A stretch of 54,989 nucleotides of DNA from a virus: positions 1 through 54,989 of the IMG/VR virus record IMGVR_UViG_3300049989_000072; one strand, given 5' to 3'. Below, one piece after another: positions 20,523 through 54,989 of the stretch (positions within the stretch are counted from its first letter, which is position 1; each line of letters opens with the position of its first letter). The notes beneath the pieces were generated by a model that saw only the letters and a program-made list of their open reading frames with translations, did not search any database and was not told where the DNA came from. A program made the translations under genes and the position numbers.

Positions 20523-20659
20523 ACTACGTCCTCTTCGCTCTCATCGTGATCGGTGGACCTCTCGGTCTTCTCATATTTGCAGCCGTCTCCGCTGTTCGTA
20601 GCTACAACCGCGAAGACGATGCTCGCAAGAATGACACCGGCTATAGTGAGAAGATCTAG
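20510..20659 (+). CDS. possible 49-aa membrane peptide
   Basis: GTG overlaps the upstream gene end. TM segment is YVLFALIVIGGPLGLLIFAAV. The 3' end contains promoter-like motif P4. There is no clear SD. Confidence 0.3.
   Translation: MEVVDYVLFALIVIGGPLGLLIFAAVSAVRSYNREDDARKNDTGYSEKI
20621..20653 (+). promoter_or_regulatory. promoter-like motif P4 (GCTCGCAAGAATGACACCGGCTATAGTGAGAAG)
   Basis: Same register, upstream of the 20739 gene. Confidence 0.5.
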
Positions 20660-20710: not shown

Positions 20711-20735
20711 CATATTTTTCTCTTGAAAGGAGAAC
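20711..20735 (+). promoter_or_regulatory. conserved initiation motif copy (CATATTTTTCTCTTGAAAGGAGAAC)
   Basis: 3 nt before ATG 20739. Confidence 0.65.
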
Positions 20736-20738
20736 CTC

Positions 20739-20909
20739 ATGATGAAAACCGGAAGGTTTCGAAGAGTCTACGTCGTGAAGTTTCCTGACGGTCGTCAAGA
20801 GACATACGACGAGTACGGAAGCCTCTACGAGCTTGGAAAAGCTCTCCGATCCGAAGGGATCGATACCGATACCCTGACTCTCATCTCCGGCGAGCCCTAC
20901 AAGCTCTAA
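20739..20909 (+). CDS. hypothetical protein (56 aa)
   Basis: A canonical CATATTTTTCTCTTGAAAGGAGAAC motif lies 3 nt upstream of the ATG. The ORF is too short for the supplied track. Confidence 0.5.
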   Translation: MMKTGRFRRVYVVKFPDGRQETYDEYGSLYELGKALRSEGIDTDTLTLISGEPYKL

Positions 20910-20932: not shown

Positions 20933-21142
20933 ATGCCTCTTCCCTCCTCGACGCTCGACTACACCATCGGCTCGATGCCGTTCTGGTTCGGGCTTCCCCT
21001 CTTCTTCATCCTCCTGCTCATCCTCGCGATGCAGTGGCGACGCGCCGTCGTCGTTCGCAGACGCGCAGAGGTCAAGCTCCCCACCGGCAACATGTCGGCT
21101 GCCGGAACACCCAAGCCCCGCTCTAAGGAGTACCGCAAGTGA
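20933..21142 (+). CDS. small membrane protein
   Basis: TTCTCTTGAAAGGAGAAC lies 2 nt upstream. TM segment is MPFWFGLPLFFILLLILAM. Confidence 0.55.
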   Translation: MPLPSSTLDYTIGSMPFWFGLPLFFILLLILAMQWRRAVVVRRRAEVKLPTGNMSAAGTPKPRSKEYRK

Positions 21143-21975
21143 AGGACCAGATCATCACGATCGCCCGGTCTGCATTCAAGCAGATCTCGGACAACTCGCC
21201 CACCATCCTGACCGCCCTCGGCGCAACGGGTGTCGTGGGTACAGCTGTCCTCGCCGCTCGGGGTCACCGCGACGCTCGAGCAGCAATCATGCGTCAGAAG
21301 CATGTCCTCACGGGCATGGATGACGGCGAGTGGACCTACCAGGAGGTGCTCCAGGCCCTCGAGCAGATCGAGATCCCGCCGGCGGATGTCTTCAAGCTCA
21401 CCTGGTCGCACTACCTGCCGGCCGCCGTCACGGGCGCGGCATCGATCGCGTGCATCATCGGCGCCAACTCGATCCACACGAGGCGTCAGGCCATCCTGAT
21501 GAGCGCCTACACCCTCTCCGAGCGTGCTCTCAACGAGTACCAGGCGAAGGTCCAGGAGGTCATCGGCGAGAAGAAGGCTGAGGCGATCAAGGATGAGGTC
21601 GCCAAGGATCGTGTGCTCGCCACGCCGTCAGACGCCTACGTCCCGCCGTACCAGGGCAAGGGTCAGCTGTGCCAGGACTCGCAGTCCGGTCGATATTTCT
21701 GGGCAACCCCGGAGCAGATCGACCGAGCTGAGAACGAGGTCAACCAGATGATCCTCAACGACGGTCATGCCTCGCTCAACGACTTCTACCGGCGCATCCC
21801 GGACGAGGAACTGGGGCCGATCGCTGCAGGCGAGGAGCTCGGGTGGACCAACGGTACCCTCATCGGTCTCCGCAAGACCGCGGTGCTGACGCCCGAGGAC
21901 AAGACCGTACTCTTCATCGAGTACACGACCGATCCCATCCGCAACTACTGGCGCGCGCACCCCTACGAGCGCTGA
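21139..21975 (+). CDS. membrane-anchored protein, paralog of 27140..28018 (DUF6353-like, name from memory)
   Basis: GTG follows AAGGAG. It shares with the 27140 protein two N-terminal hydrophobic helices, 'Y.P......ASIACIIGA' and a coiled region followed by a globular C-terminus. Confidence 0.45.
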   Translation: MKDQIITIARSAFKQISDNSPTILTALGATGVVGTAVLAARGHRDARAAIMRQKHVLTGMDDGEWTYQEVLQALEQIEIPPADVFKLTWSHYLPAAVTGAASIACIIGANSIHTRRQAILMSAYTLSERALNEYQAKVQEVIGEKKAEAIKDEVAKDRVLATPSDAYVPPYQGKGQLCQDSQSGRYFWATPEQIDRAENEVNQMILNDGHASLNDFYRRIPDEELGPIAAGEELGWTNGTLIGLRKTAVLTPEDKTVLFIEYTTDPIRNYWRAHPYER

Positions 21976-22702: not shown

Positions 22703-22737
22703 CCTCGCAGGATTTACACGCCCTATAGTGAGACCCC
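22703..22737 (+). promoter_or_regulatory. promoter-like motif P5 (CCTCGCAGGATTTACACGCCCTATAGTGAGACCCC)
   Basis: Starts 3 nt after the stop of the 22044 gene and precedes ATG 22768. Confidence 0.55.
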
Positions 22738-24969: not shown

Positions 24970-25004
24970 CCTCGCAAGAACTGCATGGCCTATAGTGAGA
25001 ACCC
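24970..25004 (+). promoter_or_regulatory. promoter-like motif P6 (CCTCGCAAGAACTGCATGGCCTATAGTGAGAACCC)
   Basis: Same register; precedes ATG 25034. Confidence 0.55.
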
Positions 25005-27139: not shown

Positions 27140-28018
27140 ATGAAGATCAATCTTCCCCCCGCGGTCACCCGAGCGGTCGGCCGTAGCGTCCTCCAGGCGC
27201 AGAAGCACTCCCCCGAGATCCTCGTCGCAGCCGGTATCGCCGGTTTCGTCACCGCGGGCGTCCTGGCCGTCAAGGCAACGCTGAAGGTGGAGCCGGTCAT
27301 CGACCAGCACACCGAGAACGTCGAGATCATCACGTCCATCCAGGCCACCAGCGACGCCAGCCAGGCGCTCCAGAAGAAGGAGCTGTCGAAGCAGTATCGC
27401 CACACGGCGTTCGAGCTGACGAAGCTCTACGGTCCGTCGGTGACGCTCGCCATCGCCTCGGCCGCCTGCATCATCGGTGCACACGGCATCATGCGCAAGC
27501 GGAACGTCGCTCTCGCCGTCGCCTACAAGGGCGCGGAGCGGATGCTCGAGGAGTACCGCAAGCGTGTCGAGTCGGAGATCGGCATCGACAAGGAGCAGGA
27601 GCTCTACCACGGCCTCGTCGAGAAGGAGATCGTGGGTGAGGACGGCAAGACGCAGAAGGTGATGACTCGTGAGGGCAACACCTTCTCGCTGTACGCTCGA
27701 CTCTTCGATGAGTCGAACCCGAACTGGCGAAGCGACTCGGACTACAACCTCACCTTCCTCCGCAGCATCCAGGATCACGCCAACCACAAGCTCCGTACTC
27801 GTGGCCACGTCTTCCTGAACGAGGTCTACGACTGGCTGGGCATGGAGCGCAGCTCGCTCGGTGCCATGGCTGGCTGGCTCTACGAGGAGGGCGGCGACGA
27901 CTACATCGACTTCGGCCTCTACGACAACGTCGCCAACTCGGCAGCGTTCGTGGCGGGACTCGAGAAGAACGTCTGGATCGACTTCAACGTGGACGGACCG
28001 ATCCACACCCGCATCTGA
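27140..28018 (+). CDS. membrane-anchored protein, paralog of 21139..21975
   Basis: Collinear with the 21139 protein (two N-terminal helices, 'YGPSVTLAIASAACIIGAHG', coiled region). C-terminal 'FLRSIQDHANHKLRTRGHVFLNEVYDWLG'. Confidence 0.45.
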   Translation: MKINLPPAVTRAVGRSVLQAQKHSPEILVAAGIAGFVTAGVLAVKATLKVEPVIDQHTENVEIITSIQATSDASQALQKKELSKQYRHTAFELTKLYGPSVTLAIASAACIIGAHGIMRKRNVALAVAYKGAERMLEEYRKRVESEIGIDKEQELYHGLVEKEIVGEDGKTQKVMTREGNTFSLYARLFDESNPNWRSDSDYNLTFLRSIQDHANHKLRTRGHVFLNEVYDWLGMERSSLGAMAGWLYEEGGDDYIDFGLYDNVANSAAFVAGLEKNVWIDFNVDGPIHTRI

Positions 28019-31201: not shown

Positions 31202-34200
31202 GTGGATTTTTACACCATCAAGGAAGTCCTGCAGAAGAACGGGGTCATCGAGATCTTCCCCGACTTCAAGGTTACTCGCTCCTCGGACCTCATGGTGCGG
31301 GGTAAGTCCTTCTATGCCGTGTGGGACGAGGAGCGGGGCCTGTGGTCGACGGATGAGTACGACGTACAGAGACTTGTGGACGAGCACCTGTGGCGTCACC
31401 GCAATTCCAAGACGGATGGCGTGTACTCGGTCAAGCTCATGAGCGACTTCTCGAGCGGCGTGTGGCGCCAGTTCAAGAACTACATGACGCTGGTGTCCGA
31501 CCACTACATCCAGCTCGACCAGGACCTCACCTTCAGCAACACCGAGGTGAAGAAGACCGACTACGTGTCGAAGCGCCTGCCCTATCCTCTTGTCACGGGG
31601 GATATTTCAGCGTACGACGAGCTCATTGGCACGCTGTACAACGAAGACGAGCGAGCAAAGCTCGAATGGGCGATCGGTGCGGTCATTGCCGGAGACGCCA
31701 AGAGCATTCAGAAGTTCCTGGTGCTCTATGGTGCGGCCGGTAAGGGCAAGTCCACCATGCTCAACATCATCATGAAGCTCACGGAGGGGTATCACACCAC
31801 CTTCGAGGCTAAGGCACTGACCTCTGCCGGCAACCAGTTTGCCATGGAGATGTTCGGAAACAACCCTCTCGTGGCTATTCAGCACGACGGTGACCTTTCC
31901 CGCATCGAGGACAACACGAGGCTCAACTCGATCGTCGCCCACGAAGACATGCTCATCAATGCCAAGTTCAAGGCGCCCTACACCGCAGCGGTGATGGCGT
32001 TCCTGTTCATGGGTACGAACAAGCCGGTCAAGATCACGGACGCAAAGTCCGGTATCATTCGACGACTCATCGACGTGCAGCCTTCGGGTAACATGCTGCC
32101 GTTCAAGCGGTATCAAGCACTCATGTCCCAGATCGACTTCGAGCTCGGTGCAATTGCACATCACTGCCTGAGCATCTATCGATCCATGGGTAAGGACTAC
32201 TACGGCAAGTATCAGCCGACCGAGATGATGCTGCAGACGGACGTCTTCTACAACTTCATTGAGTCATATTTCGATGTGTTCATGGAGCAGGACGGCGTTC
32301 AGCTGGCGCAGGCTTACAAGATGTACAAGGAGTTCGCGGATGACTCGAACCTTGAGTTCAAACTTCCGCTGCACAAGTTCCGTGAGGAGCTGAAGAACTA
32401 CTTCGGAGGGTATGTGGATCGCGGTTTCGTCGATGGCGTTCGTGTCCGCAGTTACTACACCGACTTCCAGCGGGACAAGTTCCGCCCACAGATCGAGGAT
32501 ACTGCCAGCTTCTCGCTGGTGTTGGATGAGACCACCTCGATATTTGACCAGATGTTCGCGGACCGACCGGCTCAGTATGAGAAGGAGAACGGTTCTCCTA
32601 CGGACTTCTGGGAGAATGTGAAGACGACTCTCGCCGACCTTGACACGTCACAGACGCATTACGTGAAGGTTCCTGTGAACCATATCGTGATCGACTTCGA
32701 CCTCGTGGACGACGAAGGCAACAAGTCGCTGGAGAAGAACCTCGAGGCTGCCAGTAAGTGGCCGGCAACCTACGCGGAGTTCAGCAAGTCTGGTGGTGGG
32801 GTGCACCTGCACTACAACTACACAGAGGATCCCACTCAGCTCGGTAGGATTTACGACGATCACATCGAGATCAAGGTCTATGAAGGCGGTGCCGCACTTA
32901 GGAGACGACTGTCCCACTGCAACAACGTTCCTGTTGCAACCCTCAATGGCGGACTTCCGCTGAAGGAGAAGAAAAAGATGCTGACGGATCAGACGATCCA
33001 GAGTGAGCGGGCCCTCCGCAATCTCATCATGCGGAACCTGCGGAAGGAGATCCACCCGGGCACCAAGCCCTCGGTCGACTTCATCCACAAGATCCTGTCC
33101 GACGCGTACGAGCAGGGTCTGACGTACGATATTTCGGATCTGCAGCCGGCGATCATGTCGTTTGCTGCGAACTCGAACAACCAGGCTGCGGCATGTCTGA
33201 AGCTGGTGGCTCAGATGAAGTTCAAGTCGGCTGTGCCTTCCGACGGCTCGCCTGACGCCGCGGTGAGCCTCAAGGACGACCGTCTGGTCTTCTTCGATGT
33301 CGAGGTCTTCCCCAACGTCCTCATGATCAACTGGAAGTTCCGTGGTTCCCCCACGATCGTCCGCATGATCAACCCGTCGCCGGAGCAGGTCGAGGAGCTG
33401 TTCAAGCTCAAGCTGGTTGGCTACAACTGCCGCCGCTACGACAACCACATCCTGTACGCCCGTTCGATGGGATATTCGATCGAGCAGGTGTACAAGAAGT
33501 CGCAGGAGATGATCACGCAGGGCAAGGGCTACTTTGCCGAGGCGTACAACCTCTCCTACGTCGACATCTACGACTTCGCGTCGAAGAAGCAGTCGCTCAA
33601 GAAGTGGCAAGTCGAGCTGGGGCTGAAGCACCAGGAGCTTGGTGAGCCGTGGGACGAGCCGCTGGACGAGTCCAAGTGGGAGAAGGCGTCCCTCTACTGC
33701 GACAACGATGTGCTCTCCACGGAGGCCGTCTTTGAGAACCGTCACGGAGACTTCGTGGCGCGTCAGATCCTGGCGGACCTCTCGGGTCTTCCGGTCAACT
33801 CGTCGACGCAGCAGCACACCGCTCGCATCATCTTCGGTCGCGATCGTGAGCCGCAGCAGAAGTTCATCTACACCAACCTCGCGCTCGAGTTCCCGGGCTA
33901 CGACTTCGACCTCAAGCGTCCTCGTGGCGAGTGGTCGATGTTCCATGGCGAGGCTGTGGGTGAGGGTGGATACGTCTACGCGGAGCCTGGCATCTACGAG
34001 GACGTCGCCGTGCTGGATATTCAGTCCATGCATCCGGCTTCCCTCATCGAGCTCGAGCACTTCGGACCCTACACGGAGCGGTTCGACATGCTCCGCAAGG
34101 CTCGTGTCGCGATCAAGCACGGTGACTACGCGTCGGCGCGCAAGATGTTCGACGGCAAGCTCGAGCCTCATCTCGAGGACGAGTCGACGGCCGAGGACCT

Positions 34201-35065
34201 GTCCTACGCGCTGAAGATCGCCATCAACATCGTGTACGGTCTTACCTCTGCCTCGTTCCCGAATCCCTTCAAGGACCCGAACAACATCGACAACATCGTC
34301 GCCAAGCGCGGCGCGCTGTTCATGGTGCTGCTCAAGCAGTTCGTCCAGGACAAGGGATATTCTGCCATCCACATCAAGACCGACTCGATCAAGATCCCGA
34401 ACGCCAATCCGGAGATCATCGACGCTGTCATGGAGTTCGGGCAGGAGTACGGCTACATCTTCGAGCACGAGGAGACGTACCAGAAGATCGCACTCGTCAA
34501 CGATGCGGTCTACATCGCGAAGACCAAGGACGGGCGTAAGCCCGCGCACTGGACCGCTACCGGCGCCCAGTTCCAGCACCCTTACGTCTTCAAGACCCTG
34601 TTCAGCGGCGAGGAGGTCGTGTTCCGCGACTTCTGCGAGGCGAAGCAGGTCACCGGCGCGATGTACCTGGACTACTCGGCAGGCGACGACCTGGAGGAGA
34701 CCGCCACGGCTCGGAAGTCTCGGAAGAAGGTTCCCGAGATGGTCGAGTCGAACGAGGAGCTCGAGGTCCCGATGTACCTGGAGGCTGAGGAGAAGGAGGC
34801 TGACGTCACCGAGGGGCTCACGTTCATCGGCAAGGTCGGACTCTTCGTCCCCGTGCTCAAGGGTGGCGCCAAGCTCGTGCGCGTCAAGGACAACAAGCTG
34901 TACGCGGTGGGTGGCACCAAGGGCTACCGCTGGGCTGAGGCAGACACGTTCGAGCAGGGTGGCAACATGGATGACATCGACATGTCATATTTCATGGCCC
35001 TCGCGGAGGCAGCTCGGAAGAACATCGAGCGCTTCGGTTCCTTCGAGGAGCTCGTCGATGCCTGA
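31202..35065 (+). CDS. replicase fusion: SF3 (D5-like) helicase + AEP primase-polymerase + family B DNA polymerase
   Basis: Walker A is VLYGAAGKGKST and Walker B-like is LVAIQHDGD. AEP motifs are IVIDFDLVD and SKSGGGVHLHY. PolB exonuclease motifs are FFDVEVFPN, YNCRRYDNHIL and YCDNDVLS. Polymerase motifs are LDIQSMHPAS, KIAINIVYG and IHIKTDSI. Confidence 0.8.
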   Translation: MDFYTIKEVLQKNGVIEIFPDFKVTRSSDLMVRGKSFYAVWDEERGLWSTDEYDVQRLVDEHLWRHRNSKTDGVYSVKLMSDFSSGVWRQFKNYMTLVSDHYIQLDQDLTFSNTEVKKTDYVSKRLPYPLVTGDISAYDELIGTLYNEDERAKLEWAIGAVIAGDAKSIQKFLVLYGAAGKGKSTMLNIIMKLTEGYHTTFEAKALTSAGNQFAMEMFGNNPLVAIQHDGDLSRIEDNTRLNSIVAHEDMLINAKFKAPYTAAVMAFLFMGTNKPVKITDAKSGIIRRLIDVQPSGNMLPFKRYQALMSQIDFELGAIAHHCLSIYRSMGKDYYGKYQPTEMMLQTDVFYNFIESYFDVFMEQDGVQLAQAYKMYKEFADDSNLEFKLPLHKFREELKNYFGGYVDRGFVDGVRVRSYYTDFQRDKFRPQIEDTASFSLVLDETTSIFDQMFADRPAQYEKENGSPTDFWENVKTTLADLDTSQTHYVKVPVNHIVIDFDLVDDEGNKSLEKNLEAASKWPATYAEFSKSGGGVHLHYNYTEDPTQLGRIYDDHIEIKVYEGGAALRRRLSHCNNVPVATLNGGLPLKEKKKMLTDQTIQSERALRNLIMRNLRKEIHPGTKPSVDFIHKILSDAYEQGLTYDISDLQPAIMSFAANSNNQAAACLKLVAQMKFKSAVPSDGSPDAAVSLKDDRLVFFDVEVFPNVLMINWKFRGSPTIVRMINPSPEQVEELFKLKLVGYNCRRYDNHILYARSMGYSIEQVYKKSQEMITQGKGYFAEAYNLSYVDIYDFASKKQSLKKWQVELGLKHQELGEPWDEPLDESKWEKASLYCDNDVLSTEAVFENRHGDFVARQILADLSGLPVNSSTQQHTARIIFGRDREPQQKFIYTNLALEFPGYDFDLKRPRGEWSMFHGEAVGEGGYVYAEPGIYEDVAVLDIQSMHPASLIELEHFGPYTERFDMLRKARVAIKHGDYASARKMFDGKLEPHLEDESTAEDLSYALKIAINIVYGLTSASFPNPFKDPNNIDNIVAKRGALFMVLLKQFVQDKGYSAIHIKTDSIKIPNANPEIIDAVMEFGQEYGYIFEHEETYQKIALVNDAVYIAKTKDGRKPAHWTATGAQFQHPYVFKTLFSGEEVVFRDFCEAKQVTGAMYLDYSAGDDLEETATARKSRKKVPEMVESNEELEVPMYLEAEEKEADVTEGLTFIGKVGLFVPVLKGGAKLVRVKDNKLYAVGGTKGYRWAEADTFEQGGNMDDIDMSYFMALAEAARKNIERFGSFEELVDA

Positions 35066-35708: not shown

Positions 35709-35742
35709 CCTCGCAAAAACCACACACCCCATAGTGAGAGCC
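35709..35742 (+). promoter_or_regulatory. promoter-like motif P7 (CCTCGCAAAAACCACACACCCCATAGTGAGAGCC)
   Basis: Same register with a CATAGT hexamer; precedes the SSB-like gene (ATG 35788). Confidence 0.5.
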
Positions 35743-42953: not shown

Positions 42954-43123
42954 GTGAGTACGAAGGGTTCTTTCAGTGTGGCAACTTTGAGAATCACGGT
43001 CCTCACGAGCACGACATGATGGTCTTTGGGAGGGATGGTATGGGTTTTGACGCTGTCATCGAGACGGTGTGGTGTTTTGGTCGAGCCCACGACCTCCCTG
43101 CGTACAGAGATCTCGGACCATGA
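42944..43123 (+). CDS. mini Cys/His protein 6 (59 aa)
   Basis: 'FQCGNFENHGPHEHDM......VWCFG'. The stop overlaps the helicase start (ATGA). Confidence 0.4.
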   Translation: MAVSEYEGFFQCGNFENHGPHEHDMMVFGRDGMGFDAVIETVWCFGRAHDLPAYRDLGP

Positions 43124-44397
43124 CTTACGAACTGATGCCTCATCAACGTGAGGCGATTGGAAAGATGCGCAATGGCTCTGTCCTCAAAGGTGGTGTCGGA
43201 ACTGGCAAGACAATCACGGCGCTCGGGTATTTTTACGGCCACGTTGCAGGAGGCTGTCTCGAGCAGAAGCAGGATCGTTCGTATCACCCTCCGACCAGTC
43301 CCCGTGACCTCTACGTCATCACAACGGCAAAGAAGCGAGACTCCCTCGACTGGGAAGAAGAGGCCCTCATGGGCTTCGGCATCTCCCGAGACCCCGATCT
43401 TTCCGCTGGCGGCATAAAGCTCACCGTCGATAGCTGGAACAACATTGACCGCTACGTCGGAGTGAAGGATGCATTCTTCATTTTCGATGAGCAGCGGCTG
43501 GTGGGCTCCGGCGCCTGGGTCAAGGCCTTCCACAAGCTAGCCCAGGACAACCAATGGATCCTTCTGTCTGCCACCCCCGGTGACAGCTGGATCGAATACG
43601 CCCCTATCTTCATCGCACACGGTTGGTATAAGAACCGCACCGAGTTCATGAAGAAGCATGTGGTGTACAACACCTTCGCCAAGTTCCCCAAGATCGACCG
43701 CTATGTCGAGACGGGTATCCTGGAGAAGTACCGTCGTGCAGTCCTCGTCGAGATGCCGTACAACCGCCACACCAAGCGGCACGTGCTCAATACGATGGTC
43801 GGATACGACGAAGCACTGTACAACCGGGTGGTGAAAGACCGCTGGCACGTGTACGAGGAACGCCCCATTCGAGATATTGCGGAGATGATTCGCGTCGCTC
43901 GACAGGTGATCAACTCGGACACATCGAGACTTGCCGCGGTCATGGAGTTGCTCGAGAAGCACGACCGACTCATCATCTTCTACAACTTCAACTACGAGCT
44001 CGACATGCTCCGTACGTTGTCGTGTCTGGGACTTCCGATGGCCGAGTGGAACGGCATCAAGCATCAACCAATCCCAGAGGCAAAGAAGTGGATCTACCTC
44101 GTGCAGTATACAGCCGGCGCCGAAGGCTGGAACTGCATCTCGACCAACGCTATCTGCTTCTGGTCGCTCAACTACTCGTACAAGATCACCGAGCAGGGCA
44201 GAGGGCGCATCGACCGCCTGAACACCCCGTTCGACGATCTGTACTACTACACCCTGCGGTCTATGGCGGGTGTGGATACGGCGATCAACAAGAAGCTCGC
44301 CACCAAGACCAACTTCTCAGAGAAAGCCTACGTCAAACAGGCTGGTCTGTGGCCGGAAGAAAAGGAGCCGGAGAAGGTCTTGGTGTCATACCAGTAA
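43120..44397 (+). CDS. SF2 (SNF2/DEAD-like) helicase
   Basis: 'LMPHQREAI', motif I 'GGVGTGKT', motif II 'FIFDEQRL', 'LLSATPG', helicase-C 'LIIFYNFNYE' and motif VI-like 'TEQGRGRIDR'. Confidence 0.8.
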   Translation: MTYELMPHQREAIGKMRNGSVLKGGVGTGKTITALGYFYGHVAGGCLEQKQDRSYHPPTSPRDLYVITTAKKRDSLDWEEEALMGFGISRDPDLSAGGIKLTVDSWNNIDRYVGVKDAFFIFDEQRLVGSGAWVKAFHKLAQDNQWILLSATPGDSWIEYAPIFIAHGWYKNRTEFMKKHVVYNTFAKFPKIDRYVETGILEKYRRAVLVEMPYNRHTKRHVLNTMVGYDEALYNRVVKDRWHVYEERPIRDIAEMIRVARQVINSDTSRLAAVMELLEKHDRLIIFYNFNYELDMLRTLSCLGLPMAEWNGIKHQPIPEAKKWIYLVQYTAGAEGWNCISTNAICFWSLNYSYKITEQGRGRIDRLNTPFDDLYYYTLRSMAGVDTAINKKLATKTNFSEKAYVKQAGLWPEEKEPEKVLVSYQ

Positions 44398-45655: not shown

Positions 45656-46050
45656 TGCCCAGGGAGTCTGAGGAGGTTGAAGTCCATCCGTGGGAGGTCC
45701 TTCAGGATGACGTGGTGAATGTTGCTGGGCGCATGCTGGCAATCGACTCCATCAACATGACGTCTCCGAGCGACCGAGAGGTATCTTTCAGCGACAATCG
45801 AGTCATGTTCGATACGTTTGATCGGCTGCTCATCAAGAACCTGGAGTTCACGTTCCGGTGTCGATCGGGGGAGACCTTCTGCGTTCCTGGTCACGAGCTC
45901 ATGAGGGTGCGGAGGTTCACGATTCCGGGCAATCGTGGGCGATCTGGGGAGACAGGGGAAGAAGCTCGGAGACGTGAGGAGGCGGAGTTCCGTCGGATGA
46001 ATCCGCACCTGTTCCCTGGCCAGGGTGGGGACATCGCTTCGCAAGAATGA
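45655..46050 (+). CDS. hypothetical protein
   Basis: Coupled start (TGATG). 131 aa with 'HPWEVLQDDVVNVAGRMLAIDSINM'. Confidence 0.45.
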   Translation: MPRESEEVEVHPWEVLQDDVVNVAGRMLAIDSINMTSPSDREVSFSDNRVMFDTFDRLLIKNLEFTFRCRSGETFCVPGHELMRVRRFTIPGNRGRSGETGEEARRREEAEFRRMNPHLFPGQGGDIASQE

Positions 46051-46070
46051 CAGGGCTCATAGTGAGACCC
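46037..46070 (+). promoter_or_regulatory. promoter-like motif P8 (CTTCGCAAGAATGACAGGGCTCATAGTGAGACCC)
   Basis: Same register; overlaps the 3' end of the 45655 gene and precedes ATG 46090. Confidence 0.5.
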
Positions 46071-46310: not shown

Positions 46311-46350
46311 GAGAGCCCCTGTAGACCCTAACCGGTTTGCGGGGGCTCTC
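46311..46350 (+). terminator. intrinsic terminator
   Basis: Perfect 9-bp stem GAGAGCCCC / GGGGCTCTC. The loop contains GACCCTAACCGG, and TTGTTGTC follows. Confidence 0.6.
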
Positions 46351-46354
46351 TTGT

Positions 46355-46386
46355 TGTCGCGAGAATGACTAGGGCTATAGTGAGAG
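46355..46386 (+). promoter_or_regulatory. promoter-like motif P9 (TGTCGCGAGAATGACTAGGGCTATAGTGAGAG)
   Basis: Same register; follows the hairpin at 46311-46350 and precedes ATG 46399. Confidence 0.5.
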
Positions 46387-46539: not shown

Positions 46540-46635
46540 CCCATCCACAACCTCGAAAAGCGGGGGCTTCGGCCCTCTCTTTTTGTCTGGGTCGGTGGCC
46601 AGAAATCTTGGAAAAGCCCACTTTTGCAAAAATCT

Positions 46636-46785
46636 TGTGGGAGTTTTCGTCCAACTTTTTTCTGTAGTGGCCAAAAAAGTGGGCAGAGTGGCCAAAAACG
46701 TTTTCAAAAGTGGGCACGTTTCGTCCAACTTTGTGGGACTTCGGTGGGACTTCGTCCAAGTTTTGTGGGACCTTTCGTCCAACTT
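46636..46785 (+). repeat. direct iterons (core GTGGGAC-n-TTCGTCCAAC-TT), about 5 copies
   Basis: Copies are at 46636-46657, 46709-46731, 46732-46744 (partial), 46745-46762 and 46764-46785. They lie in a ~600-bp non-coding, lower-GC region that also has five GTGGCCA / TTGGCCA words. Confidence 0.8.
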
Positions 46786-47075
46786 ATAGGGTGTTTTGGG
46801 CGGTTTTGGACCACTTTTCACAGGAAACTCATAGACTAGTGGCCAATTCTTGAAAACAGTACCAATTCACTATAGAAAAAGTTATTATAGTAGGTAGAGT
46901 AGAAAACGGGCAAAAAATTGGCCATCTGTCCACGAGGAGGACTTTGACATGCAAGACTCGTTGCCGACCCCAGGTTGCGGATGTGGCTACCCATGCCTCG
47001 GCAAGGTCATCCCAAACCCCGACCTCACAGGACTGAGCTCAGGCTGGATAAGTCTTCGATTCTAACGACCCTCAA

Positions 47076-47094
47076 AAGTTGGACGAAGTCCCAC
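47076..47094 (-). repeat. inverted iteron copy (AAGTTGGACGAAGTCCCAC)
   Basis: Reverse complement GTGGGACTTCGTCCAACTT matches the direct iteron core. It sits 17 nt upstream of TATAAT 47112. Confidence 0.8.
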
Positions 47095-47111
47095 GCAGTG
47101 TTTACATGCTA

Positions 47112-47117
47112 TATAAT
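47112..47117 (+). promoter_or_regulatory. consensus -10 hexamer TATAAT upstream of the nuclease-RNAP operon
   Basis: TTTACATGCTATATAATAGAAGG lies 58 nt upstream of ATG 47175. There is no -35 at 17-bp spacing; an inverted iteron copy (47076-47094) occupies that position. Confidence 0.35.
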
Positions 47118-47174
47118 AGAAGGGATAAAGGATGAACGACTACTCAAAGCTTATTTCTTTGTCTGAGGTGACTG

Positions 47175-47480
47175 ATGGCTGATCGCTTGGAGCGGGAGTT
47201 CCAGGCAGAGTTCATCAACGAACTGCGAGAGCGCTACCCCGAGGCCATCATTCTCAAGAATGACTCCGGCTATCAGCAGGGTATCCCGGACTGGATCATG
47301 CTGGTGGATGACCGCTGGTTCATGTTCGAGATCAAGCGCTCCCCGACCGCACCGCTGCGGCCGAATCAGGGCTACTACGTTGACTTGTGCAACGAGATGT
47401 CCTTCGCAGCCTTCGTCTATCCCCAGAACAAGGAGCAGGTGCTCGATGCACTTTCACGATCACTCCGTACTCGAAGGTAG
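47175..47480 (+). CDS. VRR-NUC family nuclease
   Basis: 'EREFQAEFINELR....GIPDWIMLVDDRWFMFEIKRS....PNQ' shows the PD-(D/E)xK pattern of VRR-NUC. GAGGTGACTG precedes the ATG. Confidence 0.65.
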   Translation: MADRLEREFQAEFINELRERYPEAIILKNDSGYQQGIPDWIMLVDDRWFMFEIKRSPTAPLRPNQGYYVDLCNEMSFAAFVYPQNKEQVLDALSRSLRTRR

Positions 47481-48027
47481 GCATTCCTTTCTTAGCCCCA
47501 GCCAGCACCATTGGATCAACGACACGGACGAGAAGTTCGACCGTCGATTCATGAAGCGGCTGTCCACGCTACACGGAAGCCAGCAACACGAGTTCGCCGC
47601 CTCCGCCATTCGCTTGGGCATCCGCCTCGCCGAATCGGAGCAGACGCTCAACCGTTACGTCAACGACTGTATCGGATTCCGCATGGAGCCCGAGGTCATG
47701 CTAGTCGCTGACGAGCACTTCGCCTTTGGCACCGCCGATGCGATCAAGTACCTCAGGCCTCACGGAGATCGCCGTGGCCTACTGAAGATCTTCGACCTGA
47801 AGACCGGTGAGACCCCCACCTCGTTCGTTCAGCTTGTCATCTACGCTGCGTTCTTCTGCATCGAGTATGACGTCAAGCCCATGGACATCGACTACGAGTT
47901 CAGGATCTACCAGTCCGACGACATCAAGATCTTCATCCCCGACCTCGACGACATCGTGAAGGCCTACTCCACGATCGTCAATCGCATCCGACGGATCTAT
48001 GACCTTCAGAGGGAGGTGTCCCTGTGA
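47446..48027 (+). CDS. PD-(D/E)xK (Cas4/RecB-like) nuclease
   Basis: 'SFLSPSQHHW', 'FGTADAIKYL....LLKIFDLKTGE....QLVIYAAFF' resemble the exonuclease motifs. Confidence 0.5.
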   Translation: MHFHDHSVLEGRHSFLSPSQHHWINDTDEKFDRRFMKRLSTLHGSQQHEFAASAIRLGIRLAESEQTLNRYVNDCIGFRMEPEVMLVADEHFAFGTADAIKYLRPHGDRRGLLKIFDLKTGETPTSFVQLVIYAAFFCIEYDVKPMDIDYEFRIYQSDDIKIFIPDLDDIVKAYSTIVNRIRRIYDLQREVSL

Positions 48028-50756
48028 CCGATGAGACCCATGTCAACGCCGACGAGATGATGGACGAAAGTCTCGCTCACTATGGCATTCTTCGTCGTTC
48101 CGGTAGGTACCCTTGGGGTTCCGGTGAAAACCCCTACCAGAACAACATGAACTTCCTGGCGTACGTCTCCGAACTTCAGAAGAAGGGTTGGAGCGAGAAG
48201 CAGATCGCCGAGGGCCTTGGTACCACTACCGGAGCTCTTCGCGATGCTAAGAAGATCGCCAAGACCGCCAATCGAGCCGCAGACCAGTCCCAGGCCCAGC
48301 GCCTCAAGGAGCGTGGGTGGTCGAACGTCGCCATCGGACAGCGAATGGGCATCAACGAGTCGTCGGTTCGCCAACTTCTCGCCCCGAGCAACCGAATCAA
48401 GAACGACAAGCTCCAGTCCACCGCAAATGCGATCCAGAAGCGTGTGGATGAGGTCGGCTACATCGATGTGGGTGCTGGAACCGAGCTTTACCTCGGTGTG
48501 AGTGCCACGCAGCTCAAGACTGCCGTCACCAAGCTCCGTGAAGAGGGTTACACGTACCATTACGTCGACATGCCTCAGCTCGGAACGGGTAAGGACACCC
48601 TCATGAAGGTGTTGGCCAAGCCTGGTATCGACGGCAAGACGATGTACGCCAACAAGCACCTCATCGAGCCCATTGCGGTCTACTCGGAGGACGGTGGTCG
48701 AACCTTCCTAGGCATCGAGAAGCCCAAGCAGGTCGATCTCAACCGCATTGAGGTTCGGTATGGGCCTGATGGCGGTGACGACAGGGACGGAATCATCCAG
48801 CTTCGCCGCGGAGTCGATGACATCTCCCTCGGCGCCTCGAAGTACGCTCAGGTTCGCATCCAGGTGGACGACACCCACTACCTCAAGGGCATGGCTGTCT
48901 ATACAGACGACCTTCCTGATGGCGTGGACATCCGCTTCAACACGAATAAGACCCGTGAGGAAGCTCCCACCAAGCTCGATGCGATGAAGCCGCTCAAGTC
49001 GGACGAAGACAACCCCTTCGGTGCCGTTGTTCGACAGAAGCACTACCTCGACAAGGACGGTAAGCGACAGCTTTCTGCCCTGAACATCGTCGGCGCCATG
49101 AACACCGAGGGTGGCGAAGAGGGTGCCTGGCGAAAGTGGTCTCGAAACCTGTCTTCCCAGATGCTTTCCAAGCAGTCTGCGCCTCTGGCCAAGCAGCAGC
49201 TCGGCATCGCAGGTGATCGTAAGCGCGCAGATCTTGATGAGATCCTCGCTCTGAACAACCCTGCCGTCAAGAAGAAGCTTCTCGATGGTATGGCTGACGA
49301 TCTCGATGCAGCAGCGGCCCACCTCAAGGCAGCCGGTCTTCCTCGAACCGCGTCTCACGTTCTCCTCCCCTTGACCACCATCAAGGAGACCGAGATCTAT
49401 GCACCCAACTACCGAGATGGCGAGCGAGTCGTTCTGATTCGTCACCCTCATGGTGGTACCTTCGAGATTCCCGAGCTCACGGTCAACAACCGTAACCGTG
49501 AAGCTGGTCGAATCATGAAGGGTGCGCAAGACGCAGTTGGCATCAACCCCAAGGTTGCCCAGCAGCTGTCGGGTGCCGACTTCGATGGCGATACCGTTCT
49601 GGTCATCCCGAACAACAATAAGGCTGTGAAGACTTCCTCCCCTCTCGAGGGCCTGAGGAACTTCGACCCCAAGACGGAGTACCGTGAATACCCTGGTATG
49701 AAGCGGATGTCCTCTGAGGGTACGCAGCTGAAGATGGGTGACATCTCCAACCTGATCACGGATATGACTATCCAGGATGCAACGGAAGCAGAGCTCGCTC
49801 GTGCTGTTCGTCATTCCATGGTGGTCATCGATGCAGAGAAGCACGGCCTCAACTACCAGCAGTCTGCCAAGGACCATGGTATTGCCGAGCTCAAGCGCAA
49901 GTACCAGGGCGATGCCCGTGCTGGTGCCGCAACTCTCATCTCTCGTGCCACCTCCCAGCAGAGGGTGGATGCTCGCAAGCCCCGGCCTGCAGCAGATGGT
50001 GGTCCTGTGGACCCGGAGACGGGTGAGCGTCGTTTCGTCCCCACCGGCGAGACATACGAGCGCCCCGTACGGGACCGCAAGACCAAGGAGATCATCGGCA
50101 CTGAGACGGTCAAGAAGACCCTCACCTCCACCAAGATGGCAGAGACCACCGATGCTCGAACTCTGAGCTCCGGGACTGTGATGGAAGGTGTGTACGCCGA
50201 CCATGCCAATCGTCTCAAGGCCATGGCCAATGAGGCCCGGAAGGCATCGCTTGCAATCAAGCCCATCCCCCAGTCGGCGTCTGCAAAGACCGCCTATGCC
50301 AAGGAGGTAAGTACCCTCCGGGATAAGCTAGATACGGCCCTCCGTAATAAGCCCCTAGAGCGCCGGGCCCAGACAGTCGCCAACATGATCGTCAAGGCCA
50401 AGCGGGATGCAACCCCCTCTATGGATGCGGCTGATCGTAAGAAGATTGCAGGGCAGGCCCTTGCAGAGGCGAGGCTCAGGGTCGGTGCACACAAGGCCCG
50501 TGTTGTGTTCACACCTCGTGAGTGGGAAGCTGTGCAGGCTGGTGCAATCAGCAACTCCTTCCTCACCCAACTGTTGAGCAATGCAGATCTCAATGAGGTA
50601 CGCCAACTGGCCACACCTCGTGACAGACCTGCCATCTCAGCAGCCCTCCTGGCCAGGGCACAGACCATGCTGTCTTCGGGTAACTACTCACAGGCAGATG
50701 TGGCTGATGCACTGGGTGTCAGTGTTAGCACTCTTAACACAGCGCTTCACGGATAG
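48024..50756 (+). CDS. candidate single-chain two-barrel RNA polymerase (YonO / crAss-vRNAP / RdRP-like) with HTH modules
   Basis: 'THYLKGMAVYTDDLPDGVDIRFNTN' resembles the beta DPBB (HGNKGV..EDMP..G..VDIVLNP). 'RVVLIRHPHGG...AVGINPKVAQQLSGADFDGDTVLVI' resembles the beta' DPBB ([11 protein letters not shown]...[24 protein letters not shown]). HTH-like 'WSEKQIAEGLGTTTGAL', 'WSNVAIGQRMGINESSVRQLL' and 'YSQADVADALGVSVSTLNTAL' are present. Confidence 0.55.
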   Translation: MTDETHVNADEMMDESLAHYGILRRSGRYPWGSGENPYQNNMNFLAYVSELQKKGWSEKQIAEGLGTTTGALRDAKKIAKTANRAADQSQAQRLKERGWSNVAIGQRMGINESSVRQLLAPSNRIKNDKLQSTANAIQKRVDEVGYIDVGAGTELYLGVSATQLKTAVTKLREEGYTYHYVDMPQLGTGKDTLMKVLAKPGIDGKTMYANKHLIEPIAVYSEDGGRTFLGIEKPKQVDLNRIEVRYGPDGGDDRDGIIQLRRGVDDISLGASKYAQVRIQVDDTHYLKGMAVYTDDLPDGVDIRFNTNKTREEAPTKLDAMKPLKSDEDNPFGAVVRQKHYLDKDGKRQLSALNIVGAMNTEGGEEGAWRKWSRNLSSQMLSKQSAPLAKQQLGIAGDRKRADLDEILALNNPAVKKKLLDGMADDLDAAAAHLKAAGLPRTASHVLLPLTTIKETEIYAPNYRDGERVVLIRHPHGGTFEIPELTVNNRNREAGRIMKGAQDAVGINPKVAQQLSGADFDGDTVLVIPNNNKAVKTSSPLEGLRNFDPKTEYREYPGMKRMSSEGTQLKMGDISNLITDMTIQDATEAELARAVRHSMVVIDAEKHGLNYQQSAKDHGIAELKRKYQGDARAGAATLISRATSQQRVDARKPRPAADGGPVDPETGERRFVPTGETYERPVRDRKTKEIIGTETVKKTLTSTKMAETTDARTLSSGTVMEGVYADHANRLKAMANEARKASLAIKPIPQSASAKTAYAKEVSTLRDKLDTALRNKPLERRAQTVANMIVKAKRDATPSMDAADRKKIAGQALAEARLRVGAHKARVVFTPREWEAVQAGAISNSFLTQLLSNADLNEVRQLATPRDRPAISAALLARAQTMLSSGNYSQADVADALGVSVSTLNTALHG

Positions 50757-50773: not shown

Positions 50774-51022
50774 ATGGACACACAGCAAGTGATGCTGACA
50801 ACTGTTGACAATCCTTTCAATCCTTTCACTCAATGGAATGAATGGTTCGAGTTCGATGAGAGTTCAGGTTACTCAACTTGTTCGCTCCTTGCTCGAATCG
50901 CTTTGACAAGTGATGAGTTGAGTGATAGTGATCAACGGTTGGCAAGAGATGATGCAATCGACATCATCATTCGAGAAATTGGGCCAGGCTTCTACAAGCG
51001 AGTAACTTCGTCTGAAGCTTGA
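50774..51022 (+). CDS. hypothetical protein
   Basis: 82 aa. 'TVDNPFNPFTQWNEWFEFDESSGYSTCSLLARI' is a motif I recall from other phage proteins of unknown function. The segment has lower GC. Confidence 0.5.
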   Translation: MDTQQVMLTTVDNPFNPFTQWNEWFEFDESSGYSTCSLLARIALTSDELSDSDQRLARDDAIDIIIREIGPGFYKRVTSSEA

Positions 51023-51046
51023 CACCTTTGGCTCACCGACGGTGCC

Positions 51047-51081
51047 GGGGGGAGGGGTCTCGAAATTCTGACCCCCCCTCC
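51047..51081 (+). terminator. G/C-rich hairpin after the early/middle region
   Basis: GGGGGGAGGGGTC-TCGAAATTCT-GACCCCCCCTCC (imperfect). A second perfect 8-bp palindrome, CATGCAGG..CCTGCATG, lies at 51210-51237. Confidence 0.45.
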
Positions 51082-51276
51082 GCATCGCCTCCCTCCTCAA
51101 AAATTCCCCGGGGGACATTTTTAGGGAAACATTACTACCCCGGTTGGTTTATCTGGGGGTATCAGGCACAAAAAAACTGGGACTCATCCACCCAATCTCC
51201 TTTCAAGAGCATGCAGGAACTAGTCGTGACCTGCATGTAAGACCTGGTACCCTCAGATAAACTAATTGACAAACAC

Positions 51277-53835: not shown

Positions 53836-54207
53836 GTGCCTGAAGAGATCGACAACAAGAAGAGCATCCTCAACTCGGTCAAGCTCGGTCTCGACATCAT
53901 CCCCGAGAACGACGAGTACGACCAGGTCGTCATGATGCACATCAATTCCGTCATCGCAAAGCTCGATCAGTTGGGTGTCGATCAGTTCGGCCCCTTCGAA
54001 GTCGAGGACGAGACGGCAAAGTGGTCTGACTTCCTTGGTGAGGACAAGCTCCTCAACATGGTCAAGAGCTATGTCGTTCTCCAGGTGCGGCTGCTCTTCG
54101 ATCCTCCCACCACTTCTTTCCTCCTCGACGCTTTCAACAAGATGTCGCAGGAGATGGAGTGGCGGATCAACGTCCAGACCGAAGGAAAGCGAGTCCTCAG
54201 TGACTAG
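53836..54207 (+). CDS. gp6-like head-tail connector protein (tentative)
   Basis: GTG follows TTTAGGAGAGCAGTC. 'SVKLGLDIIPENDEYDQVVMMHINSVIAKLDQLG' fits the connector/DNA-packaging (QLRG-type) pattern. Confidence 0.4.
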   Translation: MPEEIDNKKSILNSVKLGLDIIPENDEYDQVVMMHINSVIAKLDQLGVDQFGPFEVEDETAKWSDFLGEDKLLNMVKSYVVLQVRLLFDPPTTSFLLDAFNKMSQEMEWRINVQTEGKRVLSD

Positions 54208-54989
54208 TCCCGAAGACTTCCTGAAGCACTACGGTGTCAAGGGGATGAAGTGGGGCGTTCGCAAGGATCGGGATATTTCGGGCGGTTCTTCGGTCCCTGA
54301 GCACGAGCGGACAGAGGCGGTCGTCGTCCTTCAAGAAAAGTTGAAGGATGGCGGCTCTCTGACCGTCCTCAAGGATCCCCCCGGGGCTATCGCACGCTTC
54401 CGAGCAAGGCATAGCAAGAAGTTCCGCAAGGAGATGAAGAAGGATCACTTCTTTACCCTTAAGGATGCAGACGGAAACAAGGTTGGCGACGCGTCTTTCC
54501 GCCAAGACAGCCCTACGTCCCTCAATCTTGAGTGGATTGGTGTCTCCTCGAAGCATCGTGGGAAGGGCTATGCCAGTGCCGCACTCAGAGGTGTCATTCG
54601 CTACGCCCAGGACAACGGTCTAGAGCGTCTTACGCTCGAGGTCCCCGGAGCCTCCCCCGACGCACTCCACATCTACACCAAGCTTGGCTTCAAGGTCCTT
54701 GATCAGGTCGCTGGCTCGTCGGAAGATGACTTCTGGGGTGGTCTGACCAACATGGAGATGCTGATTCCTCAGGATTCGGTTCGACACTCCGACTTTGACC
54801 CCCAAGAGGTGGTGAACTACATCGTGGAAGCACTCAACAACCCCACGCCCTCCGACTTCCTCAAGCACTACGGTGTCAAGGGGATGAAGTGGGGCGTTCG
54901 CAAGGATCGAGTCAAGAAGGCTCGCAAGCCCAAGCGCACTCCGTCCGAGCAGCACATCGAATCTCGGAAGATCAAGCGCAAGAAGCTTT
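54200..54989 (+). CDS. 5' part of the junction-spanning GNAT acetyltransferase carrying two HYGVKGMKWGVRK motifs (continues at nt 128..345)
   Basis: It is absent from the ORF track because it runs off the window end. GTG 54200 starts VTSPEDFLKHYGVKGMKWGVRKDRD. GNAT motif A is 'LEWIGVSSKHRGKGYASAALRGVIRYAQDNGLERLTLEV....ALHIYTKLGFKV', followed by a second 'PSDFLKHYGVKGMKWGVRKDR'. Confidence 0.65.
   Translation, partial: MTSPEDFLKHYGVKGMKWGVRKDRDISGGSSVPEHERTEAVVVLQEKLKDGGSLTVLKDPPGAIARFRARHSKKFRKEMKKDHFFTLKDADGNKVGDASFRQDSPTSLNLEWIGVSSKHRGKGYASAALRGVIRYAQDNGLERLTLEVPGASPDALHIYTKLGFKVLDQVAGSSEDDFWGGLTNMEMLIPQDSVRHSDFDPQEVVNYIVEALNNPTPSDFLKHYGVKGMKWGVRKDRVKKARKPKRTPSEQHIESRKIKRKKL
54863..54989. 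repeat. terminal overlap; identical to nt 1-127
   Basis: Same 127-nt string as the window start. Confidence 0.9.

Follow-up and report, generated by a model that had tools for sequence, protein, structure and literature searches.

Single-chain RNA polymerases (RNAPs), in which a beta-like double-psi beta-barrel (DPBB) is followed by a beta'-like one, are known from phages and eukaryotes and are the closest described systems to the gene considered here, a 910-amino-acid open reading frame (ORF) on the + strand of IMG/VR virus record IMGVR_UViG_3300049989_000072. The whole 54,989-nucleotide (nt) record is referred to below as the window. YonO, from the Bacillus prophage SPbeta, resembles the window protein in being phage-encoded and in having one chain of ~100 kDa with the beta-like barrel ahead of the beta'-like barrel, but terminal helix-turn-helix (HTH) modules are not among its described features. 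It is DNA-dependent and drives a single late operon from a single start, with the promoter and any need for factors still to be established according to the YonO paper (PMC5467207), whereas the ten-copy motif of the window precedes early and middle genes. The P23-45 gp64 and P74-26 gp62 proteins (PDB 8f5m) are minimal single-chain two-barrel phage RNAPs and match the window protein significantly in structure; gp64 is DNA-dependent and uses a phage-specific, multi-copy promoter motif (PMC10770324). At 14–15% identity they differ from it in length (~600 amino acids), in having no described HTH domains and in their GC-rich promoter motif (PMC10770324). Neurospora QDE-1 and Arabidopsis RDR2 (PF05183) are among its best structural matches and share the one-chain barrel order and the DxDGD loop, but are eukaryotic RNA-silencing enzymes without HTH modules (10–14% identity); QDE-1 also uses DNA templates, according to a passage of PMC9508822. 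Finally, crAss-like phi14:2 gp66 and the N4 virion RNAP are phage-encoded and transcribe early genes from phage-specific signals, and gp66 is a two-barrel single chain with DFDxD. Both are huge virion proteins, whereas the window gene lies in a replication block and not among structural genes, and gp66 was not among the significant Foldseek matches in the PDB.

Unlike these characterized two-barrel members, the window protein carries HTH modules at both ends. The preliminary description of this DNA took that arrangement to be unlike described members, but it had already been reported for the same family by Koert et al. (bioRxiv 10.1101/842583), who identified the gene as a signature of an actinobacteriophage supercluster (Arthrobacter AM/AU/AW, Gordonia DJ, Rhodococcus CC, Microbacterium EL, Streptomyces BI) that is also present in Lactococcus and Faecalibacterium phages. 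Their family alignment matched PF05183 in HHpred (95.7% over 286 columns), giving an RNA-dependent RNA polymerase (RdRP)-like core, and they also described the DxDGD loop and an HTH domain at either terminus, proposing that the protein acts as an RNA polymerase. Members of the PHROG 4291 family share the architecture of the window protein (N-terminal HTHs, two barrels, DxDGD, C-terminal HTH; length ~870–990 amino acids) and its neighborhood (VRR-Nuc, Cas4-like nuclease, polymerase, PHROG 4303 gene, genome end), and the isolates are 36–56% identical to it. The Lactococcus phage 1706 protein had been listed as one of five distantly related YonO-like families (Ruprich-Robert and Thuriaux, PMC2919709); Lactococcus phage P162, whose homolog aligns full-length with the window protein, is described in a passage of PMC4110766 as related to 1706. 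The window protein is a new member of a known putative-polymerase family, not a new kind of protein. What is new here are ten coding-strand copies of a promoter-like motif, the recurrence of that motif in seven gene-carrying genomes, its non-sigma-70 spacing and a conserved N-terminal peptide. The published family description made no link to a promoter motif or to an N-terminus resembling DUF7211 (10.1101/842583), and the Arthrobacter, Microbacterium and phage 1706 replicase papers are silent on the protein as a polymerase and on the motif. The parts of the ORF are as follows.

48024–50756, + strand: 910-amino-acid ORF, predicted single-chain two-barrel RNA-polymerase-like protein with terminal HTH modules, PHROG 4291 member
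48024–48128, + strand: N-terminal conserved peptide, residues 1–35, DUF7211-like, with L17, H19, G21, R24, S26-P30 and G32-G34 invariant
48129–48455, + strand: two N-terminal three-helix HTH units, residues ~36–96 (weak) and ~97–144 (firm), from Pfam, segment scans and the structural model
48741–49103, + strand: putative beta-like double-psi barrel (DPBB-B), residues ~240–360, from the strand pattern of the model and Foldseek alignments to QDE-1; invariant R278, K288-G289 and D296-x-P298-x-GVD-xx-FNTNK
49341–49613, + strand: putative beta'-like double-psi barrel (DPBB-A), residues ~440–530, with invariant R473-x-P475-H476 and metal-binding loop; weak Pfam RdRP match at 510–610
49575–49592, + strand: ADFDGD, residues 518–523, candidate catalytic Mg-binding aspartate triad
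49713–49907, + strand: conserved helices after DPBB-A, residues 564–628, with MG..SNLI.DM and ARAV.HSMVVID.EKH; model helices 564–583, 588–607 and 611–628
50631–50753, + strand: C-terminal HTH of sigma-70 region 4/resolvase type, residues ~870–910, from Pfam

The ORF was present as first described. A GGGAGG Shine-Dalgarno sequence stands 7 nt before its GTG start at 48024, and the start shares the tetranucleotide GTGA with the stop codon of the nuclease gene upstream. An AlphaFold2 model built on a 47-sequence alignment (mean predicted local distance difference test, pLDDT, 78.7; predicted template-modeling score, pTM, 0.67) shows two beta-rich regions, at 242–356 and 443–529; within the six-strand second region the ADFDGD loop sits between helix 509–516 and strand 524–529. 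Searched against the PDB with Foldseek, the model matched QDE-1 (E = 1.4e-8), Thermus phage P74-26 gp62 (7e-6) and RDR2 (4e-5), each at probability 1.0, followed by dozens of Rpb1 and beta' chains (E 0.03–0.4). Against BFVD, phage "RdRP" proteins (1.4e-6) and P23-45 A7XX94 (1.5e-5) ranked on top. The predicted fold is similar to that of solved two-barrel polymerases, and the suggestion of a beta-like then a beta'-like barrel in a single chain is backed by Foldseek, by PHROG 4291, by invariant residues and by a weak Pfam RdRP match.

Residue conservation was assessed in an alignment of five homologs (41–57% identity) that include Streptomyces, Arthrobacter, Faecalibacterium and Lactococcus phages, spanning two bacterial phyla, and in 47 metagenomic relatives (58–91% identity). 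The two segments first aligned by eye with the barrels of cellular RNAPs lie where they were placed, the beta-like THYLKGMAVYTDDLPDGVDIRFNTNK at residues 284–309 (nt 48873–48950) and the beta'-like RVVLIRHPHGG...SGADFDGDTVLVIP at residues 468–529 (nt 49425–49610). In both sets YAQVR 274–278, HYLKG 285–289, D296, P298, GVD 300–302 and FNTNK 305–309 were invariant in the beta-like barrel, in agreement with the alignment of HYLKG...DDLP...GVD..FN to the beta/Rpb2 RHGxKG...EDMP...PD..NP. Also invariant were R473, P475, H476 and SGADFDGD 516–523 in the beta'-like barrel, together with the helical stretch 571–607 after it; the exact ADFDGD motif held in all 47 + 5 sequences. Because these residues are invariant across cross-phylum homologs and metagenomic relatives, the barrel signatures are more than a chance likeness. 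Known invariants are R446 and P448 of the Rpb1 barrel (PMC2919709), and the Rpb2 barrel contributes the conserved basic residues K979 and K987. The invariant L471-x-R473-x-P475-H476 would match the Arg/Pro of the beta'/Rpb1 barrel, an equivalence drawn from motif order. For the basic pair of the beta-like barrel the candidates are invariant R278 and K288, with a spacing of 10 vs. 8 in Rpb2 and with one Arg; these lie in YAQVR...HYLKG, which is followed by DDLP..GVD..FN as in Rpb2/beta. The helices at 564–628 are candidate counterparts of a bridge helix and of a trigger loop.

This conservation bears on a reading in which the protein is a sequence-specific DNA-binding regulator with a dead polymerase relic and the motif is an operator or activator site for host RNAP. 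Most GenBank records do call it an HTH DNA-binding protein (SEA-PHAGES annotation), and the Pfam matches above cut-off are HTH families only. Against it, the expected active-site residues (DFDGD, R-x-P, the basic residues and the post-barrel helices) do not vary among hundreds of diverged sequences, and no part of the protein is better conserved than the core. We consider such a regulator extremely unlikely, since a relic would keep neither invariant active-site residues nor a best-conserved core.

Profile searches gave a divided result. The protein matched PHROG 4291 ("RNA-dependent RNA polymerase") end to end (E = 0, 1242 bits, residues 9–909 of 910 to profile positions 4–906 of 909). Several other results speak against the polymerase assignment: TM-scores of the structural matches were low, 0.22–0.37 (~0.3 for QDE-1); Pfam RdRP (PF05183) aligned to residues 510–610, centered on the DFDGD loop, at 16.7 bits (E = 0.0031) and missed its cut-off of 23.8; and phmmer searches of PDB sequences (whole protein and residues 430–640) and hmmsearch with the 47-sequence profile returned HTH proteins and noise and no polymerase. 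In hhalign the same profile reached a probability of only 2.4% over 19 columns with YonO (sequence taken from the SPbeta record), a weak negative given the low diversity of the profile (number of effective sequences, Neff, 2.1). Biochemical or transcript data for any family member were not found in the literature searched. Because sequence-only methods do not reach the solved polymerases, the assignment rests on fold and active-site conservation, and on the predicted fold, backed by that conservation, we hold with high confidence that this is a two-barrel polymerase.

The name carried by RefSeq and PHROG raises the question of whether the protein might be a true RdRP that copies phage or host transcripts, for example making double-stranded RNA or amplifying small RNAs. 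The nearest solved structures, QDE-1 and RDR2, and the weak Pfam RdRP match point that way, but the name was inherited from the Pfam family and not from any assay, and the protein has DNA-binding HTH modules. The assayed phage relatives YonO, P23-45 gp64 and gp96 are DNA-dependent (PMC5467207, PMC10770324), even QDE-1 takes DNA templates in the passage cited above (PMC9508822), and a double-stranded DNA siphovirus with a multi-copy promoter-like motif and no other RNAP fits a transcriptase; an RdRP is hardly to be expected here. The earlier statement that the genome has no other RNAP gene held in PHROG and Pfam scans, where no other ORF was large enough or matched an RNAP, and no sigma factor was found among the window ORFs scanned, which did not include every small ORF.

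The family is large and well-populated. By tblastn, relatives were found in 250 phage records, 249 of them covering ≥80% of the query, from phages of Arthrobacter, Gordonia, Streptomyces, Microbacterium, Curtobacterium, Rhodococcus, Lactococcus and Faecalibacterium and from human-associated contigs. They are mostly annotated as "helix-turn-helix DNA binding domain protein" and in some cases as "RNA-dependent RNA polymerase" or "putative RNA polymerase". The core (residues 230–650) searched against 1.84 billion representative proteins matched 1217 clusters at E ≤ 1e-3, 667 of them at E ≤ 1e-30. The best identity was 56% for an isolate and 91% for a metagenomic cluster, followed by clusters at 62–63%, and megablast with the gene as query turned up no near DNA relative in 50,697 phage records. 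Some relatives (P0013, P0014, P0028, P0035, P0052, P0090, P0103, P0108) are 1045–1076 amino acids long and have an extra PF13563 domain (2'-5' RNA ligase superfamily), presumably C-terminal given the added length, and two others (P0137, P0141) are ~1800 amino acids long with the polymerase core starting near residue 1170.

Two of the three proposed HTH modules were found above Pfam gathering cut-offs. The second N-terminal module matched HTH_23 at residues 90–119 (31.1 bits, cut-off 24.6), with Sigma70_r4 at 96–119 falling short (19.4 bits, cut-off 24.1), and the C-terminal module at 875–909 matched Sigma70_r4_2 (30.2 bits, cut-off 25.7), HTH_3 (28.8, cut-off 23) and HTH_7 (23.9, cut-off 23.8). 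The first N-terminal module (~36–96) showed weak matches and three model helices (37–53, 58–64 and 69–96, compared with 101–108, 112–119 and 121–144 for the second).

The window contains nine close copies of a long promoter-like motif, as first noted, and a tenth, divergent copy that was recovered by a search for the skeleton CGC-N7-ACA-N5-YATANT (match 47094–47117). All ten lie on the + (coding) strand, where 0–0.6 would be expected by chance. The consensus is (C)CTCGCAAGAnTnACAnGnCCTATAGTGAGACCCC, with the layout (C)CTCGCAAGA-nTnACA-N5-TATAGTGAGA, or TCGCA-N6-TnACA-N5-TATA(G/A)TGAGA.

19171–19201, + strand: motif copy 1 (CTCGCAGGACTAACACGTCCTATAGTGAGAC), Shine-Dalgarno sequence and start codon 28 nt downstream
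19625–19655, + strand: motif copy 2
19985–20015, + strand: motif copy 3, exact consensus
20622–20652, + strand: motif copy 4
22704–22734, + strand: motif copy 5
24971–25001, + strand: motif copy 6
35710–35740, + strand: motif copy 7, just after the DNA polymerase gene
46038–46068, + strand: motif copy 8
46356–46386, + strand: motif copy 9, directly preceded by a hairpin with a 17-bp stem (46311–46350)
47092–47122, + strand: motif copy 10, divergent, CGC-N7-ACA-N5-TATAAT skeleton, directly upstream of the VRR-Nuc/Cas4-like/polymerase operon

Nine of the ten copies are followed within 17–57 nt by a Shine-Dalgarno sequence and start codon of a + strand ORF, and hairpins precede several of them. 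The TATA(G/A)T hexamer is separated by 14 bp from the end of the TCGCA block and by 5 bp from that of the TnACA block. The tenth copy has a perfect TATAAT and a counterpart in Arthrobacter GantcherGoblin, at 5085–5112 of the compared stretch. The downstream half of the motif, CCTATAGTGAGA, is close to the T7 class III promoter core, CACTATAGGGAGA. A T7-type RNAP reading the T7-like CTATAGTGAGA was considered and rejected, as no ORF of that size or family is present in the genome; because there is no T7-type polymerase, the likeness probably arose by convergence, both sequences having a TATA melting element with purines after it.

The motif architecture recurs, multi-copy and on the coding strand, in all seven gene-carrying genomes examined, that is, the window and the six others below. 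In these six the copies cluster where the early region begins, immediately after the genes for tail and holin, and a terminator hairpin often precedes them.

Streptomyces Scap1, 6 copies: TCGCAAG..T.C..GC.TTATAGTGAGACCCCTAC
Arthrobacter GantcherGoblin, 8 copies plus one before VRR-Nuc: TCGCA.AAA..ACA.GGC.TATAATGAGA
Gordonia Secretariat, at least 9 copies: TTCGCA....TTACAyGCCyTATAATGAGACCCCTAC
Saliva Caudovirus D_HF4_2, at least 8 copies: TCGCAAAAAT.AC.....CCTATAATGAGAAC
Lactococcus P162, 11–12 copies: TTTTAAGTTTTACATACCCTATAATGArA
Faecalibacterium FP_oengus, 12 copies: GACGCGAAAAATACAGCCTCCTTTATGGAAG

The core ACA-N5-TATARTGARA is common to the actinophages and a Lactococcus phage, the motif varies between lineages (TATAGTGAGA, TATAATGAGA, TTTATGGAAG), and the motif was absent from a 50-kb control stretch of SPbeta. 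In FP_oengus the hexamer has drifted to TTTATG, which is without the A2 and T6 positions of the sigma-A −10 consensus and is hard to reconcile with host sigma-A. The pattern is that of a long promoter-like element of constant layout that drifts between lineages together with the phage polymerase. Such drift recalls the lineage-specific promoters of T7, T3 and SP6. It also recalls the phage-specific motifs of P23-45 (PMC10770324). Because the polymerase is the only protein with DNA-binding domains found among the lineage-conserved proteins, it is, on this sequence evidence, the best candidate for the reader of the motif.

These observations suggest a mechanism that we consider the more probable account, with moderate confidence, in which the protein is a DNA-dependent polymerase that recognizes the motif through its own HTH modules. 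The ORF would be a single-chain two-barrel RNAP of the QDE-1/YonO/P23-45 gp64 type, its active site combining the basic residues R278 and K288 of the beta-like barrel with the R-x-P and the Mg-holding DFDGD aspartates of the beta'-like barrel. The HTH modules would bind the upstream part of the ~30-nt phage promoter with no need for a sigma factor, melting would take place at TATA(G/A)T, and transcripts would begin in or near GAGA, the enzyme driving many short early and middle transcription units. We infer the catalytic activity, the DNA template, the polymerase rather than the host enzyme as reader of the motif, the start site and the timing. The first enzyme molecules could be made by host RNAP, since the motif copy of the operon has a perfect TATAAT, or, less likely, could arrive in the virion. 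In a stronger form, put forward tentatively, the ~100-kDa polymerase alone would recognize TCGCA-N6-TnACA-N5-TATA(G/A)TGAGA as a "sigma-fused" minimal machine, making the lineage independent of host sigma factors.

A number of points weigh against this mechanism, and some of them favor its main rival, in which the two-barrel polymerase is active but the motif is read by host sigma-A as early promoters, and the phage enzyme transcribes the late genes (packaging, head, tail, lysis) in the manner of YonO, its HTH modules recognizing a different late promoter present in a single or few copies. Outside FP_oengus, the motif in each of the six genomes carries TATAAT or TATAGT, a near-perfect −10 hexamer and a possible target for host sigma-A, above all in Actinobacteria, whose −35 elements are weak. 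The motif marks the early region and stands before early genes, while the polymerase gene lies at the end of the early/middle block, with no other large gene between it and the structural module on the circular map, a position that a YonO-like late role fits better, YonO itself transcribing one late operon from one start site (PMC5467207). No full motif copy occurs from 47122 to 19171 across the contig junction, an interval that takes in the polymerase operon, the left-end genes and the structural module, and a partial TTGACA-N5-TATAAA stands at 51268, before the left-end genes. FP_oengus encodes an integrase, so some of its expression after induction must start without virion proteins. Moreover, polymerase and motif are linked purely by occurring together in a single phage lineage, which shared descent alone could produce.

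Against a late-gene role combined with host reading of the motif, the conserved blocks, at distances of 5 and 14 bp to the hexamer, do not have −35 spacing, and only one of the nine close copies passed a sigma-70 −35/−10 scan, a result on which sigma-70 was rejected as the simplest account of the motif. The FP_oengus motif is without a −10-like hexamer, and conservation of the extended motif between Actinobacteria and Lactococcus phages fits a phage reader better than it fits differing host sigma factors. The left ends of three genomes were compared and yielded no conserved late motif. We judge this alternative rather unlikely and prefer the phage polymerase as the reader of the motif.

The first 35 residues of the polymerase are predicted to be disordered (pLDDT <50 for 1–27), yet twelve of them are invariant across phyla, in the motif L-x-H-Y-G-I-LRRS-G-RYP-W-G. 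Their resemblance to the HYGVKGMKWG proteins encoded beside the portal gene, which was part of the preliminary description, proved real but weak. HYGVKGMKWG is the motif of Pfam DUF7211 (PF23847) and occurs six times in five ORFs around the terminase gene, which score 54–100 bits (cut-off 27). The polymerase N-terminus scored 13.9 bits (E = 0.036), below that cut-off, and was the best sub-threshold match of the DUF7211 hidden Markov model among all window ORFs (E = 0.56), and a local profile-profile alignment with hhalign gave 91% probability over the first 12 columns. A relationship between the polymerase N-terminus and DUF7211 is plausible from these scores, and DUF7211 proteins occur in the same phage lineage, FP_oengus included. 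The peptide could possibly be a shared partner-binding or capsid-targeting peptide. Its sharing with proteins encoded in the head module is the only hint of virion packaging, and packaging of the polymerase seems doubtful to us, as does the boldest step of the proposal, in which the DUF7211-like peptide would serve as a capsid-targeting tag and the co-injected enzyme would fire the early promoters. The literature searched yielded no virion proteomics and no mapped transcripts for members of the family.

The DUF7211 coding sequences form a 62-nt repeat, encoding (D/E)DFLxHYGVKGMKWGVRK, whose five + strand copies (2154–2215, 2548–2609, 3675–3736, 54209–54270, 54848–54909), including one copy across the contig junction, open ORFs on either side of the terminase gene. 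From 54200–54989 and continuing at 1–345 (+), one open frame comprises a DUF7211, a GNAT acetyltransferase, a second DUF7211 and a basic coiled-coil tail, crosses the contig junction and runs a short way into the start of the terminase gene; the frame may correspond to a single fused protein or to a pair of same-frame genes. A search with two concatenated DUF7211 motifs against a set of 5.8 billion proteins returned only ten short proteins and was uninformative as to the domains the tag is fused to.

The window is a circular assembly of ~54,862 bp, bases 1–127 being repeated exactly at 54863–54989, and is a complete phage genome. All of its recognizable genes are on the + strand.

311–2131, + strand: large terminase
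5085–6344, + strand: portal
6322–8505, + strand: protease-capsid fusion, 727 amino acids, with an N-terminal Peptidase_S78 prohead protease domain and PHROG 3270 over most of its length
10375–11337, + strand: major tail protein
12281–16834, + strand: tape measure
31202–35065, + strand: primase-polymerase, 1287 amino acids, PHROG 4210 full length plus primase families
43069–44397, + strand: helicase
47175–47480, + strand: VRR-Nuc endonuclease (PHROG 93), upstream in the polymerase operon
ending at 48027, + strand: Cas4-family exonuclease (PHROG 3953), in the same operon, directly upstream of the polymerase ORF
50774–51022, + strand: small conserved gene (PHROG 4303), always next after the polymerase gene in relatives

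Three genes make up the operon behind the divergent motif copy, with the polymerase gene in final place, and the order VRR-Nuc, Cas4-like nuclease, polymerase is kept in relatives. The GantcherGoblin equivalent of the gene at 6322–8505 is annotated as a major capsid and protease fusion, and such a fusion is described in the literature for Arthrobacter clusters AM and AU. The tape measure gene holds a tandem 180-nt direct repeat (14534–14893, 76% identity). In the early region there is a paralogous pair of full-length DUF6353 genes (21139–21975 and 27140–28018, +). A strongly conserved ribosome-binding context, TCTCTTGAAAGGAGAAC, occurs eight times before start codons (20715–20741 and seven other sites). 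Scans for tRNAs and Rfam families found nothing.

Upstream of the polymerase operon, 46580–47090 is a 500-bp stretch without a convincing ORF that is dense in short repeats and abuts the tenth motif copy. It contains TTTCGTCCAACTT in four direct copies and one inverted copy (47074–47087), GTGGGACTTCG twice in tandem and GTGGCCAAAAA three times, and is a candidate replication origin or operator array. In a further alternative the polymerase would make primer or origin-activating transcripts at this region, its HTH modules binding the repeats as iterons. The gene does lie within a replication/recombination block (helicase, VRR-Nuc, Cas4-like nuclease), and the non-coding TTTCGTCCAACTT repeats adjoin the promoter-like motif of its operon. 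The replicase homolog, however, already has a primase domain (PHROG 4210), and phage 1706 GP55 was shown to prime (PMC12205980). The 1287-amino-acid primase-polymerase appears to correspond to this multi-domain replicase of the phage lineage, being of similar size and domain content, a likeness by description and not by direct alignment, to GP55, the "four-in-one" replicase with helicase, primase, polymerase and exonuclease activities (PMC12205980). Ten dispersed motif copies before genes would also be left unexplained, and we regard a replication role as very unlikely next to a transcriptional one.

A physical genome end (cos) probably lies near 51100, because the sequence at 51046–51120, GGGGTCTCGAAATTCTGACCCCCCCTCCGCATCGCCTCCCTCC | TCAAAAATTCCCCGGGGGAC, which includes a GC-rich palindromic stretch (51046–51100), is similar to both termini of Streptomyces Scap1, right and left, and to the left one of Arthrobacter GantcherGoblin. 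The polymerase gene would then end ~340 bp from the right end, as it does in nearly all isolates compared, the exceptions being FP_oengus and Psst2, which are numbered from other start points. In lambda, the left end, near the terminase genes, is packaged first, and the end packaged last is the first to enter the cell. If packaging proceeds as in lambda, the polymerase operon would be the first DNA in the cell, and host RNAP could make the first enzyme from the perfect TATAAT of its motif copy, as with T7.

This family offers a ready test system for how single-chain two-barrel RNAPs find their promoters: the enzyme carries the candidate DNA-reading modules in its own chain, the presumed promoter stands out clearly, occurs in many copies and varies between lineages, and cultured hosts and phages exist, including those of Arthrobacter, Gordonia, Streptomyces and Lactococcus. 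Our analysis adds a candidate promoter, open to testing, that accompanies the gene in phages of two phyla and does not resemble a host promoter. If the enzyme is self-sufficient and promoter-specific, it would provide an orthogonal transcription tool that is compact and has no relation to T7 RNAP, and a living sigma-independent two-barrel enzyme, bearing on ideas about the ancestor of cellular RNAPs. It would also correct the names "HTH DNA-binding protein" and "RNA-dependent RNA polymerase" on phage records and thousands of metagenomic proteins, and sigma independence could explain the spread of these phages across Actinobacteria and Firmicutes with a GC content far below that of their hosts.

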